A stretch of DNA of 64,000 bases from Pseudomonadota bacterium (GCA_009927165.1 RFNO01000117.1:14468-78467), one strand, 5' to 3'. Shown: positions 27,110 to 63,685, numbered from the stretch's first letter. Numbers and translations: made by a program. The notes: generated from the letters alone by a model not told the origin.

Positions 27110-28126
27110 ATGAATTTTACTTAACATCATTTTGATTCGGTCTTGATAAGTGTGATTGCCACGTTGAACTCGATCAAATCCTTTTGCAGCAATTTTCTTC
27201 CGCTCTCCCAGATGAGCTTTATAGTAAGTTACTTTATCTTTGAGCTCGTCCAAGGAATCAAAACAAACAATTTCCTTGTCCTCATCAAAGTAGCTTAAAA
27301 TTTCTTCATTTCTCGGTGCAATTTGCAAAGTTCCACATGCCGGGATTTCAAAAGTCCGTTGTGTATGACGATCTTCTGCTTCCTCTCGTAAAAGACCAAG
27401 AGCGATTTCACTGTGACTTATTACGTCTGCAAAGTCGGGATGGTAAATTGCATGAGGAACAATATGGTCTCGATACTTTCGATAATTTCGATATTTTGTC
27501 CAGCGGTCGCCCCACACGTAGAGTTGTTCCCAACCAACAGCATTAAGAAATTTATCTCGTGAGCGATCATATGTTCCTACGAAAGTTACCTGAAATGATT
27601 TGCCTCCAAGTTTGCTTTCGTTTGCAGATAGAGGCCGATGTACTTGGGGCTCGAAAGCAGAGGGAATATAAAAAGATAGGGGTTGTCCTAACATTTTGTA
27701 TCGTTGGAGATTTTGGGACTTGGTCGTGAATACGCAGTCGTAAAGTGAGAGAGTATCAAAAAAATCACTTGGCTTGAGAATGCCATCGGAAAAGTTATTG
27801 TCATGAGAATGATAAATCAGCTTAGGTGGGCAGGGTAAAGACCGCAATTCTTGGAGTAAGTCACTGGATAAAAAGTTTTCTGCCAAATTCAAAACCAGTT
27901 CAATGTTCAGTTCCTGACATTTGCGAAGCACGAACTCTGAACAAGCATCAATTTTTTTTTTTAGGGGATGGTGATTCCAACGGATCAAAAAAGATTCCCA
28001 AACATGCTCAGAAGCAAACATGCCTGGATCCCAACGAAATACTTCGTGTCCCAAAGCTTCGGCCGCATTTGCGTAAAAGGAAGAGCAAGCATTGGGGGAG
28101 AGGCTACCCAAATAGAGAATTCGCAT
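27098..28126 (-). CDS. CgeB-family glycosyltransferase
   Basis: VTFVGT, RTFEIPACG, HTYQDR. Confidence 0.8.
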   Translation of the reverse strand: MRILYLGSLSPNACSSFYANAAEALGHEVFRWDPGMFASEHVWESFLIRWNHHPLKKKIDACSEFVLRKCQELNIELVLNLAENFLSSDLLQELRSLPCPPKLIYHSHDNNFSDGILKPSDFFDTLSLYDCVFTTKSQNLQRYKMLGQPLSFYIPSAFEPQVHRPLSANESKLGGKSFQVTFVGTYDRSRDKFLNAVGWEQLYVWGDRWTKYRNYRKYRDHIVPHAIYHPDFADVISHSEIALGLLREEAEDRHTQRTFEIPACGTLQIAPRNEEILSYFDEDKEIVCFDSLDELKDKVTYYKAHLGERKKIAAKGFDRVQRGNHTYQDRIKMMLSKIHLAD

Positions 28127-28350
28127 AGAAAAATTATAGACGAATCTGGGGCCCGACCCTAATTGTGTTCGGTAACGGCCGTAGTTTGTTGCACCGTCTA
28201 ACAAATTGACAGTTGTTTAGCGTGTGAACAAACGGGAGATTGAATTTTGAGCATGGCGGAAAAAGACTGTAAATACAAATACTTGAAATCAGGAGACTGA
28301 ATGCCATTAGTCTACACAAGACGAGTGGCATTTCCTTGCAATTTGTAAAG

Positions 28351-28705
28351 TGCGGCTGAGGAAACTTGGCTAGGAGGCAGTCTCAGGAATGCTACAAAGA
28401 TGGGTTCGGGACAACTAATTCGAAATTGCAAATCGGGAGACCATGAGTCGGGAGGAAACAGGTTTTAGTTTGAGAGAAGATTTACTCAGACTTGAGGCCA
28501 TTAGGGGGAACTAAGATCCGGTGTGAACGAGGACTTGCTGGTGTGAAACCGGGTCCCATTTTTTCTAGAGCTGAAGGGGTTTCGCTCTAGGATAAACGGT
28601 CTGCTTAAAGACAGCAGGCACGGGGGTACTCAACAAGTATCTTCGTGGTACCACTACTCCTCTCTCGCCCGCCGCTTTCAATTGTGAAGGCGGCGAGGTT
28701 TTTTT
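28351..28705 (+). ncRNA. Putative structured non-coding RNA, family not recognised
   Basis: Intergenic region with no long ORF; many hairpins whose G-U pairs favour the + strand; 10 GGA in 28360-28592; ends in a terminator. Confidence 0.6.
28670..28705 (+). terminator. Intrinsic terminator 1
   Basis: CGCCGCTTTC/GAAGGCGGCG stem followed by a T run. Confidence 0.8.
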
Positions 28706-28708
28706 AAG

Positions 28709-28746
28709 AAACGGTCCAAGGATGTGATTCCTTGGGCCGTTTTTTT
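28709..28746 (+). terminator. Intrinsic terminator 2 (tandem)
   Basis: AAACGGTCCAAGGA/TCCTTGGGCCGTTT stem followed by a T run. Confidence 0.8.
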
Positions 28747-28824
28747 CTCTTTATGAATATAGCCTCATAATTAACGCTCGGTGTGACTTTATCCGATAGG
28801 GGAATGGAGAAGGCTTAGAGCACT

Positions 28825-29922
28825 ATGGATGAAGGAAAAAAAATAGGGTCCATTCCGTTTTCCGTGAAGAAACGAGCTGAAATGCAAGGGGGATTTGAGG
28901 AGATTCAGCAAGTAGCCTCTGGGGGGATGGCTATCGTTTTTAAGGCCAAACAGCCCAGTTTGGAAAGATTTGTAGCTGTTAAAAGTCTCAAATCCCATTT
29001 GTTAGCTAATCCTGAGATCAGAGAGCGATTTCGGAGAGAGGCCAAGGCTTTAGCTAGTGTTCTTCATCAAAATATTGCCCATGTGTATGATTTCAGTGAG
29101 TCTGAAGAAGAAGCCCTTATTTTCATGGAATATATTGATGGAATCGATTTGTCCCAAATTATCCAAAAAGTAGGAGCGCTTCCGGCTGAAGTTGCTGCGG
29201 CGATTCTTTTAGGGCTGGCTCGGGGAGTTTCCTATATCCACAATCGTCATTTGATTCATAGAGATATTAAACCCTCCAACATTCGGTTAACGGCTCGGGG
29301 CGAAGTGAAGCTGATGGATTTTGGAATTGTAATGGACACTGAGAGCCATTCGCTCACGAGACCTGGAATGATGGTCGGTTCTCCAAGTTATCTTTCCCCG
29401 GAACAAGTGATAGGAGATCCCCTGACGCCTCAATCCGACATTTTTCTTTTGGGAATCTGTTTGTACGAAATGTTGACGGGTACGCGGCCCTTTAAAGAAG
29501 AGGGTAACAAGACCGTGTTCCAGCGCATTCGAGAATGCGAGTATATTTCAGCTCAAGAGATGAACAGTGCTATTCCCCGTAAACTCAATCGAATCATAGA
29601 AAAATGTCTGGAGAAAGACCCTCGAGATCGATATGCCACTGCAAAGGAAGTCGTCCAAGAATTGGAGACTTTCCTAGGATTCATTAAAAGCAACCACACT
29701 CAGGATCTCATTTTGGGTTTTTTTGATGAGGAGTCTCTTCTGGTTCCCGCCATGTCTTATTCGGATGAGATAAAAGCGGCAGGTAGTTGGAAACAAACAT
29801 TTTCCAGTAAAACCTGGTTGTTAATTCTTTTACTGGCTAGCCTCAGTTTGGCTATCGGATATGTTTGGGGTAGAAACGATTCGGTTCACGCTTTACCCTA
29901 CAGTGCCAAGCCTCTGAAGTAA
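28825..29922 (+). CDS. Hanks-type Ser/Thr protein kinase with C-terminal TM helix
   Basis: SGGMA, VAVK, HRDIKPSN, DFG, GSPSYLSPEQ. Confidence 0.93.
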   Translation: MDEGKKIGSIPFSVKKRAEMQGGFEEIQQVASGGMAIVFKAKQPSLERFVAVKSLKSHLLANPEIRERFRREAKALASVLHQNIAHVYDFSESEEEALIFMEYIDGIDLSQIIQKVGALPAEVAAAILLGLARGVSYIHNRHLIHRDIKPSNIRLTARGEVKLMDFGIVMDTESHSLTRPGMMVGSPSYLSPEQVIGDPLTPQSDIFLLGICLYEMLTGTRPFKEEGNKTVFQRIRECEYISAQEMNSAIPRKLNRIIEKCLEKDPRDRYATAKEVVQELETFLGFIKSNHTQDLILGFFDEESLLVPAMSYSDEIKAAGSWKQTFSSKTWLLILLLASLSLAIGYVWGRNDSVHALPYSAKPLK

Positions 29923-31117: not shown

Positions 31118-31428
31118 GTCTTTCACCCCTGGAACTTAAGCAGTTGGGACCGCAGCATTTGGGGATTATTTGGAATGATGGCCACAATTCCTTGTTCAAT
31201 GTAAGGAATTTGAGGCTCAAGTGTCGATGCGCCAATTGTGTCGACGAGTGGACTCGAGAAAAACTTCTTGATGATAACTCAGTCCCACTTGATGTGAAGC
31301 CTCGCAAAATTGAATCAGTCGGTCGATATGCAATTAAAGTAGAGTGGAGTGATGGTCACGATGCGGGAATCTATACGTTTGAGCACTTAAGAGCTCAGTG
31401 TGAGTGCCCCTTATGCAAATCCCGATAA
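31114..31428 (+). CDS. DUF971 (GBBH N-terminal-like) protein
   Basis: WNDGH, LRLKCRCANC, VGRYA, WSDGHDAGIY; ATGA-coupled to mrp. Confidence 0.9.
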   Translation: MSLSPLELKQLGPQHLGIIWNDGHNSLFNVRNLRLKCRCANCVDEWTREKLLDDNSVPLDVKPRKIESVGRYAIKVEWSDGHDAGIYTFEHLRAQCECPLCKSR

Positions 31429-31478
31429 CACTCGAAAACAAGCTCATTTACATAAAAAAAACGTCGGATCCTTTTGGA

Positions 31479-32477
31479 ATGAATGTTCCTTTTGAAACGA
31501 GTTCCTACCGAGAGGATTTTGAACAGTCGATGAGCGGTGGTTTTTTCGATTTGTCAGATTGGGGCATAGTCGAAATCAAAGGACCCGATGCTCGTGATTT
31601 TCTCCAGAGAATGACCACCGTCGATTTTAAGAAAATCTCCTCCCACAAAGTAGTTCCTGGGGCGTTTTTGACGGGACGCGGGGGAGTAGTGGCTCTGGGA
31701 ATGTTTAGAATGCTCAAGGATGAGCATTTTCTTTTTATCACAGGGCCTGGTCAAGAAAGTGCTTCTTTGGACCATATCGATCGGTTTCACTTCCAGGAAA
31801 AACTTGAAGCACAGACGGCGGGACAAGACTCTGTGGTCTTGGGCCTATGGGCAACGCCGGAGCAACTTGAGAAAAAGCTAGGTTGGAAGTTGGGAGCTGC
31901 CTTGGAAGTAACTCAATCAACATTGGATTCTGTTGGAGTGGAAACATGGATTGATAATCGCCGTCCTTTTCTAGTTTGGTGTCAGCTCCAAAGAAATAAT
32001 GCACTCGCTTTCATTACCGCCCTTTCCAAAAAGGGTTTCGACCTGTTGGGTACCCATGTCTTTCATTTTTATCGTATTCAGGCGGGGATGCCTTGGATGG
32101 GTTGGGAAATCACCGATAAAGATCTCATTTTAGAAGCTAACTTAGAGGACCATGTCGCTCGAAATAAGGGCTGTTACCCAGGACAAGAGGTGGTAGAGAG
32201 AATTTTTACCTACGGACAAGTCAATCGAAAACTTTTTGTAGTAGAATTGAAAACGCAGGAAAGCAGGGATTATTTACGAAAACCAGTCCTTGTCGACGAT
32301 GGTGATAAGCGAGTGGGAGAACTTGTTTCTGCAGTGGAGTTCCCGGAAGATTCTTCGAGAGCCATTGGACTTGCGTATATTCGAAAGGGCTATTGGAACT
32401 CTTCAACGGAATATGAAACTGCTGACAAAGACATGTTGAAAATTCAGTTGGGCCCTGAAAGGAATGACAATGCTTAA
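31479..32477 (+). CDS. ygfZ: YgfZ/CAF17 folate-binding Fe-S maturation protein
   Basis: GPDARDFLQ and KGCYPGQE; start uncertain (31404, 31413 or 31479). Confidence 0.88.
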   Translation: MNVPFETSSYREDFEQSMSGGFFDLSDWGIVEIKGPDARDFLQRMTTVDFKKISSHKVVPGAFLTGRGGVVALGMFRMLKDEHFLFITGPGQESASLDHIDRFHFQEKLEAQTAGQDSVVLGLWATPEQLEKKLGWKLGAALEVTQSTLDSVGVETWIDNRRPFLVWCQLQRNNALAFITALSKKGFDLLGTHVFHFYRIQAGMPWMGWEITDKDLILEANLEDHVARNKGCYPGQEVVERIFTYGQVNRKLFVVELKTQESRDYLRKPVLVDDGDKRVGELVSAVEFPEDSSRAIGLAYIRKGYWNSSTEYETADKDMLKIQLGPERNDNA

Positions 32478-62110: not shown

Positions 62111-63685
62111 TTACAAGCTGCCGTCAGGCTTGCGAGCTATTTTGCGCTTATCGAGATTATATTTCTCTACTTTATTGATCAAACCAGCTCTGGAAATCCC
62201 GAGCTCTTTTGCTAAACGGGATTTGTTCCAGCCTGTCCTCTTAAGACCCTCTCGAATCATTTCTCTTTCGAGTTCTTCGAGAGCATCTCTCAGTTTCCCT
62301 TGAATCCGAACACCTTGAACCTTATTGCGTTCTCCAAAGTCTCGGATTCGGGCAGAGAGCATATCTACAGTGATTTTGCCTTCCGGTCCTGCCAGAACCG
62401 TGACGCGTTCCATTTCATTTTCAAGCTCTCGGATGTTACCGGGCCATGGGTAGTCGAAGATTTTTTCTAGGGCTCTTTTTGTGAGCACTTTCGCTTTGAT
62501 ATTTTTCTCTGCTGCACTTTTTGCAAGAAAGTGGTCACAAAGAATGGGAATATCTTCTTTTCGGTCTCTCAGCGGAGGCACGGTGATGTTGATCACGTTG
62601 ATCCGATAGTAAAGGTCTTCTCGGAAAGTCCCTTTTTCTACCATGTCTTTGAGGTCTTTGTTGGTAGCAGCAATGATCCGCACATCAACTTTTCGGGGTT
62701 CAGTAGCACCCACTGGAATAAAAGTGCCTTCCTGTAGAACTCTCAGCAACTTCACTTGCATGGTGGGTGAAGTGTCCCCAATTTCATCTAGGAAGAAAGT
62801 TCCGCCATCTGAAACTTCGAAAAGGCCCTTTTTGTCTTTGATGGCTCCCGTAAATGAACCTTTTACGTGTCCAAACAACTCTGAATCCAATAAGTTGTCA
62901 TTGAAAGCAGAGCAGTTTTGTGTAACAAAAACTTTTTCTTTTCTTAAGCTGTTATAGTGAATGGCTTTTGCAATTAGTTCTTTACCGGTTCCGTTCTCTC
63001 CTTGAATGAGGCAAGTACTTTCACTATTTTTAATTTTTTCTAACAGCCCATAGACATCTTGCATTGGTTTTGATTTTCCAATCATGTTGTCGTATTTGTA
63101 ACGGATCCCAAGCTCTTTATTGAGCTCTTGAATCCGGTCGTCTCTCATGCTGATTTCTTTATGGAGAGTACTAATTTCTTTTGACACCAAGTCAGAGAGT
63201 TCGTTGAAGTAAGGAAGCTGATCTTTTTCAATCATCCGCATTTTGTTAACCGCTAGATCAATGTCCTGACTAGGTAAGTTGAACTGAGCCAGAGCTTTAG
63301 AGAGCTCTTTTTTCTGGGCGTCGGTCACGCCCTCATGAAAATACCCTATGCACAGCACTCCCCCCATAAATTCATTATCAATAACAATCGGGAACGAGGA
63401 AGTGACCATGTTGGGTAGGAAGGTACGGATCAGGTCTTTTTCCTGTGTTTTTCTCAGTTCGGAAACCGTTTCTCTTGCAAATTCTGAAAGAGCTTCGAAA
63501 CCTTCATCTCGTTGGAGAAGAAGCGATATCACTTTGTTAGTGTATTCGTGTTTTTGCCCTTTTTCGATTAACTTTAGATTTCCTCGATCATCAGCGAAGA
63601 AAACATCAATTGAAAACCACTTACCGATTACTTCGCGAAGCTTACGAATGACATGTATATGCTCAAATTCATCCCAATTAATCAT
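62111..63685 (-). CDS. sigma54-dependent enhancer-binding protein (PocR-like sensor, AAA+, Fis HTH)
   Basis: GENGTGKE, ELFGHVKGSFTGA (GAFTGA-type loop), FFLDEIG, FREDLYYR, WPGNIREL; the N-terminal sensor is not a receiver domain. Confidence 0.9.
   Translation of the reverse strand: MINWDEFEHIHVIRKLREVIGKWFSIDVFFADDRGNLKLIEKGQKHEYTNKVISLLLQRDEGFEALSEFARETVSELRKTQEKDLIRTFLPNMVTSSFPIVIDNEFMGGVLCIGYFHEGVTDAQKKELSKALAQFNLPSQDIDLAVNKMRMIEKDQLPYFNELSDLVSKEISTLHKEISMRDDRIQELNKELGIRYKYDNMIGKSKPMQDVYGLLEKIKNSESTCLIQGENGTGKELIAKAIHYNSLRKEKVFVTQNCSAFNDNLLDSELFGHVKGSFTGAIKDKKGLFEVSDGGTFFLDEIGDTSPTMQVKLLRVLQEGTFIPVGATEPRKVDVRIIAATNKDLKDMVEKGTFREDLYYRINVINITVPPLRDRKEDIPILCDHFLAKSAAEKNIKAKVLTKRALEKIFDYPWPGNIRELENEMERVTVLAGPEGKITVDMLSARIRDFGERNKVQGVRIQGKLRDALEELEREMIREGLKRTGWNKSRLAKELGISRAGLINKVEKYNLDKRKIARKPDGSL

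Follow-up and report, generated by a model that had tools for sequence, protein, structure and literature searches.

The window analysed here is a stretch of 64,000 nucleotides (nt) from a Pseudomonadota bacterium (GCA_009927165.1, RFNO01000117.1:14468-78467), and all positions are counted from its first letter. Positions 28346-28705, on the plus strand, are a genuine and conserved structured RNA gene, which belongs to a family not previously catalogued. The general kind is already known, namely that of activator-controlled small RNAs (sRNAs) that are in part dual-function; the mechanism we infer. The reading that we prefer, and to which we give about even confidence, is that the RNA would stand alone and represent a new family of dual-function sRNAs, acting by base pairing through a CU-rich tail that lies next to the first terminator.

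Fold and covariation

The plus strand of the region 28340-28750 folds with a minimum free energy (MFE) of -158 kcal/mol, against -124.8 ± 5.7 kcal/mol for 100 dinucleotide shuffles, none of which was as good (z -5.8); the minus strand of the same region has a z of -3.7. Most of the stems proposed in an original prediction, made from this DNA alone, are found in both the MFE and the centroid folds: its 5′ hairpin (GGCTGAG/CTTGGCT), the stem GGTTTTAGTTTGAG/CTCAGACTTGAGGCC (GGUUUUAGUUUGAG/CUCAGACUUGAGGCC as RNA), the hairpins P_a (GATCCGGT/ACCGGGTC), P_b and P_c, and the stem CACGGGGGTACT/AGTATCTTCGTG (RNA CACGGGGGUACU/AGUAUCUUCGUG) at about 28619-28647. Only its long-range stem AAGATGGG/CCCATTTT (RNA AAGAUGGG/CCCAUUUU) is absent from the two folds.

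Homologues were searched with positions 28300-28760 as a blastn query against 41 related genomes; 23 of these gave matches, i.e., 22 of the 24 genomes in the window's family and its own genome, and none of the 16 outside the family did. The matches cover only window positions 28642-28715, which comprise the CU-rich stretch and the first terminator. An exact-pattern scan of the genome collection returned 30 loci, 27 of which are in metagenome-assembled genomes of Bdellovibrionota (Bdellovibrionaceae, Pseudobdellovibrionaceae and 'Deltaproteobacteria'); the other three (from Bosea, Cryptobacteroides and an archaeon) are without the terminator and count as chance matches. The locus set comprised 28 distinct loci, to which five more were added afterwards.

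Alignment of the loci with MAFFT and RNAalifold recovered only the terminator hairpin T1, because the variable hairpins were misaligned. A covariance model named R1, of 119 positions and 31 pairs, was therefore given its structure by hand and then used for re-alignment. All 28 loci score between 59.6 and 111.9 bits with R1, and the three chance loci no more than 19.4 bits; the 3′ domain of the window, with 108.4 bits, ranks third among the 28. In the alignment made with the model from 38 matches (33 distinct), 93.0% of the cells are paired, versus 75.5 ± 0.9 in shuffles, 24 of the 31 pairs have changes on both sides, versus 17.8 ± 1.7, and the covariation score is 0.556 versus 0.222, all of them counts that are biased towards the structure by the fitting of the alignment to R1; none of 500 shuffles reached any of the three values. 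As a control, the partners were slid by one to three columns, and pairing fell to 35-61%.

The support is unevenly distributed along the RNA. P_c is paired in 92.6% of the cells and has changes on both sides in four of its six pairs; P_d, which corresponds to helices 2 and 3 of R1, has them in 12 of 12. The segment between P_c and the tail folds into a hairpin in every one of 25 distinct homologues, with a mean free energy of -16.2, a mean z of -3.9 and a pairwise identity of 0.57. T1 has 11 pairs, seven of them with compensatory changes in the MAFFT and RNAalifold alignment, and as helix 4 of R1 it is paired in 96.2% of the cells. Towards the 5′ end, P_b recurs by position: most of 25 homologues have a hairpin directly 5′ of P_c, with differing sequences and a mean z of -2.0, in a survey where the automatic placement of its start was wrong at about five loci; P_a has GATCC-type or equivalent hairpins among the homologues, as read by eye and without a formal covariation count. 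A hairpin of at least five pairs near the 5′ end is found in 26 of 27 homologues, with a weak mean z of -1.2 and a purine-rich loop in 17 of the 27. Thus, the search for homologues and covariation that had been proposed with the original prediction did find homologues, and covariation supports P_c, P_d and the terminator.

The two plus-strand terminators that had been predicted are present, with hairpins at 28670-28695 and 28706-28745; both consist of a GC-rich hairpin followed by a U-run, as expected of intrinsic terminators, and the region holds five terminator-like hairpins, versus 1.5 ± 1.2 in shuffles. A strict scan finds two such hairpins at 6 of the 28 loci, and reading by eye finds the second one at about 20 of the 28. 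At loci L004, L007, L008, L010, L014, L015, L017-L019 and L038, the U-run behind T1 is poor (e.g., AGGUAUUUGAAC), and a good one occurs only after the second hairpin; because of these loci, T1 appears to be conserved as a structure and not only as a terminator.

A family of one order of Bdellovibrionota

The members share a common architecture. From 5′ to 3′, the inverted repeat TGTCTAACAATTTGACA is followed, about 110-135 nt further on, by the boxes TGGCAY-N3-5-TTGCA and, about 10 nt after these, by the 5′ hairpin; the body then comprises a small open reading frame (ORF) at most loci, a purine box (GGGGCCAGGGGGA-like), P_a, P_b, an A-rich linker, P_c and P_d, and the 3′ end is made of the tail ACCACUACUCCUCUCUC, the sequence-conserved hairpin T1 and often a second terminator. 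The conserved core is thus the 3′ half of the RNA, i.e., P_b, P_c, P_d, the invariant CU-rich tail and the terminator hairpin. The features of the window are listed in Table 1.

Table 1. Features of the RNA gene and its surroundings in the window
Feature	Positions	Strand	Sequence, evidence or remark
Enhancer-like inverted repeat	28195..28211	+	CGTCTAACAAATTGACA; family consensus TGTCTAACAATTTGACA, TGTC-N9-GACA; 131 nt upstream of the boxes; one mismatch here
Sigma54-like -24/-12 boxes	28326..28340	+	TGGCATTTCCTTGCA, TGGCAT-N4-TTGCA (GG-N9-GC; canonical N10, one base short)
Predicted primary transcript, ~355-360 nt	28346..28705	+	start predicted from the promoter-like boxes; end placed at the U-run behind the first terminator hairpin
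5′ hairpin	28355..28372	+	GGCUGAG-GAAA-CUUGGCU; MFE and centroid folds
ORF remnant	28389..28514	+	MLQRWVRDN, stop, FEIANRETMSREETGFSLREDLLRLEAIRGN, stop; in-frame stop, no hydrophobic helix
Hairpin P_a	28515..28555	+	GAUCCGGU ... ACCGGGUC; MFE and centroid folds
Hairpin P_b	28565..28590	+	CUAGAGC ... GCUCUAG, then A-rich linker; MFE and centroid folds
Hairpin P_c	28599..28619	+	GUCUGCU ... AGCAGGC; family consensus ACUGCU-loop-AGCAGU; MFE and centroid folds; helix 1 of R1
Hairpin P_d	28620..28647	+	ACGGGGGUACU ... AGUAUCUUCGU; helices 2 and 3 of R1
CU-rich tail, proposed seed	28650..28666	+	ACCACUACUCCUCUCUC; 15-nt core CACUACUCCUCUCUC invariant in 28/28 loci; two leading bases vary
Conserved hairpin T1 and U-run (first terminator)	28667..28705	+	hairpin 28670-28695, then T7; terminator scan, covariation
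Second terminator, hairpin of 17 pairs and T-run	28706..28752	+	hairpin 28706-28745; terminator scan
Ser/Thr protein kinase gene, 365 amino acids (aa)	28825..29922	+	neighbour, not part of the RNA; Pfam Pkinase, E = 7.6e-54

When R1 was run on 151 genomes of the phylum, it matched 18 of 20 in the window's family, besides its own genome, and two of three in the sister family of the same order; outside both families a single genome of 127 was matched (at 37 bits, in a third family), and elsewhere none of 124. Among 401 genomes from the phylum, the exact 15-mer of the tail core was found in 34, and 32 of these, including the window's own, belong to the two related families: the window's family has it in 28 of 33 genomes, the sister family in three of four, and two other families in 1 of 14 and 1 of 3. 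None of the 238 genomes of four large families (100, 53, 58 and 27 genomes) carries it, and the reversed pattern, taken as a control, gave four matches in the 401 genomes. As far as sampled, the family is therefore confined to one order of Bdellovibrionota.

The three loci of the sister family are short, with 219-245 nt between the boxes (N4 spacer) and the tail; besides the tail they have P_b to P_d and two hairpins. The 37-bit match, locus L082 of genome G076, has the exact tail, a terminator and the boxes TGGCAC-N5-TTTGCT at 179 nt upstream; no kinase was matched in the locus, which may be a distant member. At three loci from the window's genus (L002, L003 and L005), P_c is missing, and their R1 scores of 59.6-62.9 bits are the lowest in the window's family.

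The RNA does not correspond to any family on record. A cmscan of the entire window against Rfam 15 returned no match at gathering scores, and at E ≤ 10 the region 28100-28850 gave only chance-level matches (mir-186 with 17.6 bits, for a gathering score of 70, and SgrS with 16.5, for a gathering score of 37). The RNase P RNA (contig C130, 208 bits) and the 6S RNA (contig C116, 101.6 bits) are encoded elsewhere in the same genome. The proposal of a structured RNA unlike transfer-messenger RNA (tmRNA), RNase P RNA, 6S RNA and the like is thus upheld by the empty Rfam scan and by conservation with covariation in two families; the Rfam search, which had been put forward as its check, produced no strong match that would speak against it.

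The idea of a tmRNA arose from the RF00023 search, which found none above the cut-off in the genome; it was dropped, since at the locus there is neither an ARAGORN nor an Rfam match, nor a tRNA-like end. ARAGORN detected neither a tRNA nor a tmRNA in the window. In the 95.9%-complete assembly RF00023 gave only tRNA-like matches of at most 24.5 bits, and the tmRNA of this organism may be unassembled or divergent.

Promoter-like boxes and the upstream repeat

The sigma54-like N9 site that had been noticed upstream of the RNA is confirmed, and such boxes recur throughout the family: both boxes are near consensus at all 27 loci with enough upstream DNA, with spacers of N3 at ten, N4 at fourteen and N5 at three. 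The genome contains rpoN (contig C85) and 11 strong Sigma54_activat genes, which code for enhancer-binding proteins; one of these lies in the same window at about 62585-63085, on the minus strand, 34 kb from the RNA gene. The inverted repeat was found by a strict regular expression at 18 of 27 homologous loci, at 16 of which it is 106-134 nt upstream of the boxes. The window's own genome has ten sites of the repeat at up to three mismatches, and only the one considered here is followed by promoter-like boxes. Under the preferred reading, a dedicated enhancer-binding activator would bind there and switch the RNA gene on.

An IHF-like site had also been suggested upstream of the RNA; between the enhancer and the promoter no exact consensus occurs, and sites with one mismatch are found at 28287 (plus strand) and 28276 (minus strand). 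The suspicion that a base was missing from the promoter, by sequencing error, was not borne out: a short spacing is common to 24 of the 27 homologous loci and occurs also at the three sister-family loci, and for this reason it is regarded as a trait of the family.

This same trait is the main difficulty for a sigma54 promoter. The -24/-12 boxes, rpoN, the activators and the upstream repeat are all present, but the fixed GG-N10-GC spacing is not. Relative to a canonical sigma54 promoter, the boxes at 24 of 27 loci are too close together by 1-2 bp, and the sigma54-like sites of the window's own genome keep the canonical spacing, as TGGCA[CT]-Nn-TTGC[AT] occurs 22 times with N5, versus 4 with N3, 7 with N4 and 8 with N6. 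These counts indicate that the sigma54 of the organism seems to use the usual spacing, and the conflict between the spacing of the family and the canonical class of the genome is an unexplained anomaly.

It is thus possible, if doubtful, that TGGCAY and TTGCA are not a sigma54 promoter at all, and that they are the site of another factor or belong to the transcript itself, the start of transcription being elsewhere. The variable N3 or N4 spacing and the enrichment of N5 in the genome would fit such an origin, as would the portion of the Salmonella sigma54 tables at hand, where most promoters and strong intergenic sites have GC/TGC at one fixed distance from TGGCA (PMC3844500). Against this stands the near-consensus state of both boxes at every locus, together with the 5′ hairpin, whose first paired base is 6-24 nt (median about 10) past the TTGCA box, and the scan for sigma70-like promoters, which found none on the plus strand of 27900-29100. 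Moreover, the inverted repeat is at the enhancer distance of about 70-150 bp that is given as usual for sigma54 in the same portion of that source (PMC3844500), and the sole match in a third family has the canonical N5.

The small ORF and its loss

The 5′ half of the RNA contains, at 23 of the 28 loci, an ORF of 61-124 aa, whose product would have a basic N-terminus and one hydrophobic helix, followed by proline and often by a tryptophan near the end. None of the 23 peptides matched Pfam or NCBIfam. The ORF appears to be coding in the relatives, because substitutions are concentrated at codon position 3 in all five related pairs compared (e.g., 20/14/44 at the three positions). The family may thus be one of dual-function RNAs or, alternatively, of mRNAs whose 3′ domain is functional, and translation of the peptide is predicted. 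At the three loci of the window's genus that lack P_c, the ORF is longer, crossing P_a and reaching into P_b, and its product ends in FFEE(R/L).

The window itself still has the ribosome-binding site, as well as the ATG CTA start, of its genus-mate L006; after MLQRWVRDN there is a stop, followed by a non-hydrophobic in-frame continuation, and past its predicted start the RNA of the window contains no ORF of at least 40 aa. With its ORF decayed, the gene can have kept only an RNA function in this genome. The ORF is missing also at L012, L014, L020 and L021, which together with the window make 5 of the 28 loci, from four genera; at all five, the 3′ domain, the promoter boxes and the enhancer are intact. 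This retention of the 3′ domain suggests that the RNA may have a regulatory function independent of the ORF. The description of the RNA as stand-alone is in agreement with these ORF-less forms of other lineages, with the conserved promoter-like boxes of its own and with the terminators that precede the kinase gene.

The CU-rich tail

The complement of the tail, GAGAGAGGAGUAGUGG, contains the Shine-Dalgarno-like GGAG/GAGG, which makes pairing to ribosome-binding sites the most economical mechanism. The tail would then pair with the ribosome-binding regions of target mRNAs, and the RNA would act without Hfq; indeed, Hfq (PF17209) was found in none of the 31 genomes of the family, the window's own included, 25 of which are at least 90% complete. 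The base-pairing alternative of the original prediction is, in this sense, the best reading left, and it is suggested by the invariant tail alone; no target was found.

Several results weigh against an sRNA of this kind, besides the short spacing of the boxes and the fitting of the covariation alignment to R1. A search of the genome for at least 14 of 17 bases complementary to the tail retrieved only the gene itself. A scan of start regions gave cdsA as the best ribosome-binding-site candidate, with 12 perfect pairs, and cdsA was rejected as a target, since the pairing is conserved in none of 29 relatives; nothing consistent was obtained for tail pairing in the start regions of the kinase. Partition-function folds leave most of the CCUCUCUC half of the tail paired with purine runs inside the RNA and give this half a mean unpaired probability below 0.35 at 21 of 27 loci; the whole tail is unpaired at 0.42 on average, versus 0.36 for the whole RNA. 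The folds therefore do not predict a tail that is freely exposed as a seed. No transcript evidence was found either: the contigs of three metatranscriptome runs of the same study include none on 28200-28900, a result that is uninformative on expression.

In the window, GGGGGAGTAGTGG at 31680-31693 could pair with 13 nt of the tail if G-U pairs are counted; the site falls within the ORF 31404-32477, some 3 kb downstream of the RNA gene, and may be due to chance.

A second explanation, which we consider unlikely, is that the 3′ domain is a cis-acting 3′ untranslated region (UTR) of the peptide mRNA, serving stability, control of translation by 3′-5′ pairing or termination, and that the copy in the window is a decaying remnant without function. 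It would account for the ORF kept directly upstream of the domain at most loci, for the CU half of the tail being predicted mostly paired and for the pairing of the tail with the purine-rich stretches of its own RNA, including the ribosome-binding region of the ORF, with a mean best duplex of -14.5 kcal/mol versus -12.2 in control windows. Such self-pairing is only slightly above the controls, is no better than these at many loci, and in the window it is matched by 25 of 77 controls. The five ORF-less loci, with domain, boxes and enhancer in place in four genera, the short forms of the sister family and the R1 score of the window, third of 28, also argue against a mere appendage of the peptide mRNA.

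The preferred sRNA can be extended to a fuller scheme, which is decidedly speculative and which we hold to be improbable. The RNA would be the dedicated output of an undescribed signalling module, in which the adjacent eukaryote-like Ser/Thr kinase controls an activator whose only genomic target is this oddly spaced sigma54-type promoter; the transcript would be bifunctional, with peptide and tail acting on the same pathway, and purine-rich loops (GAGGAGU, in the P_a apex) would mask the tail until remodelling. The GAGGAGU(A) of the P_a apex complements the tail in a subset of loci, over at least 7 nt in 7 of the 20 counted.

CsrA and the protein-binding alternative

The RNA had also been proposed as a sponge of the CsrA type, on account of its GGA motifs. 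The motif counts were right (TCGGGA three times, GGTGTGAA twice, GGA ten times), but the term GGA-rich is not justified, since mononucleotide shuffles have 8.4 ± 2.4 GGA (p = 0.32). CsrA is encoded in the genome, in a flagellar cluster with the order flgK-flgL-csrA-fliW; at locus L114 (G000:C101:6500-10000), positions 545-2356, csrA (83 aa) lies between the flagellin-like flgL and fliW, downstream of flgK. This is a CsrA locus of the FliW-partnered type, an arrangement in which the protein FliW antagonises CsrA and an sRNA is not known to do so.

That the RNA binds a protein, either as a CsrA-type sponge or as a decoy for another RNA-binding protein through its G-rich loops or its CU tail, is quite improbable in our judgement. 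CsrA is available as a partner, purine-rich motifs (the GGGGGA box, GAGGAG and the 5′ loops) recur in the homologues, as counted for the 5′ loop at 17 of 27 and read by eye for the rest, and the invariant 17-nt stretch of the tail could also be a protein site. GGA at chance frequency, a conserved P_c loop that is of the UAGGG type and not GGA, and csrA located in a cluster with fliW speak against it. For the CsrA sponge proper, GGA at chance and csrA beside fliW led to its rejection, and the ORF-less loci L014 and L020 have, as read by eye, only two or three GGA.

The neighbouring kinase gene

The Ser/Thr kinase gene lies downstream of the RNA, on the same strand, at 26 of 28 loci, including the window, and likewise at the sister-family loci; at L014 a kinase is upstream on the other strand, and at L053 no kinase was matched. 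Between the RNA and the kinase gene lie terminator hairpins. At many loci a GCCGATA-like motif occurs between the terminators and the kinase start (in the window TCCGATAG, 28792-28799); it resembles the -10 element of sigma28 (FliA), which suggests that the kinase may have its own promoter, of flagellar or attack-phase type.

The association with the kinase might point to a leader or attenuator that governs read-through into its gene, but this is most improbable, as one or two terminator hairpins always intervene, the RNA is intact at L014 with its kinase upstream on the other strand, many loci have the presumed sigma28-like -10 before the kinase start and no alternative anti-terminator pairing was seen.

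Significance and comparison with known systems

The regulatory RNAs of Bdellovibrionota are almost unexplored, and the locus provides a well-defined RNA family, supported by covariation, for an uncultured order. Its coding and non-coding versions of one transcript form a natural series, useful for the study of ORF gain or loss in dual-function RNAs, and its 27 conserved sigma54-like promoters, by breaking the canonical spacing, make that rule testable. The conserved link to a Ser/Thr kinase suggests where the signal may be sought. In the literature, no sigma54-type sRNA was found described for Bdellovibrionota.

The Qrr sRNAs of Vibrio are transcribed by sigma54 with a dedicated activator (LuxO), and a long, absolutely conserved single-stranded region pairs with several mRNAs; they are about 100 nt long, Hfq-dependent and non-coding. 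The RNAs described here, in contrast, measure 200-500 nt, often contain an ORF and occur in genomes where Hfq was found in none of 31. In SgrS/SgrT, a small ORF at the 5′ side is combined with a 3′ base-pairing region beside the terminator, and some lineages have shorter RNAs without the ORF. The likeness is that here, too, the ORF is present at 23 of 28 loci and absent from five, with the 3′ domain kept; however, there is no relationship in sequence or structure, the SgrS match of 16.5 bits being below any threshold, and the peptide is a one-helix membrane protein without a Pfam or NCBIfam family. With CsrB/RsmZ the RNA shares a length of several hundred nt, many hairpins and some GGA loops; unlike these, it has no GGA enrichment, its conserved loops are without GGA, its CU tail has no counterpart and csrA is paired with fliW.

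In the available part of a transcriptome study of B. bacteriovorus, attack-phase sRNAs are described that have no homologues in other genomes (PMC3627812). GlnZ is an sRNA derived from the 3′ UTR of the sigma54-dependent glnA mRNA, and Pxr is a sigma54-dependent sRNA of Myxococcus, according to the portions of the two reports at hand (PMC9731577, PMC5568312). The former resembles the present family as a regulatory RNA at the 3′ end of an activator-dependent mRNA, the latter as an sRNA from a related 'delta-proteobacterial' lineage; no homology is expected with either, and the likeness is by description only.

For glmY, the accessible part of the published account has the NtrC-type GlrR binding to TGTC-N10-GACA more than 100 bp upstream of the sigma54 promoter, together with IHF (PMC3045617). 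The present RNA differs from GlmY/GlmZ of Enterobacteriaceae in that it matches neither RF00128 nor RF00083 and gives no sign of their fold, the spacer is N9 instead of N10, the boxes are non-canonical and there is no exact IHF consensus; moreover, the neighbour is a Ser/Thr kinase and not a histidine kinase, and some members are coding. What it has in common with the GlmY/GlmZ system is the arrangement of the locus, with sigma54-like boxes, a TGTC-N9-GACA repeat about 130 nt before these and, immediately downstream of the RNA, a kinase gene.

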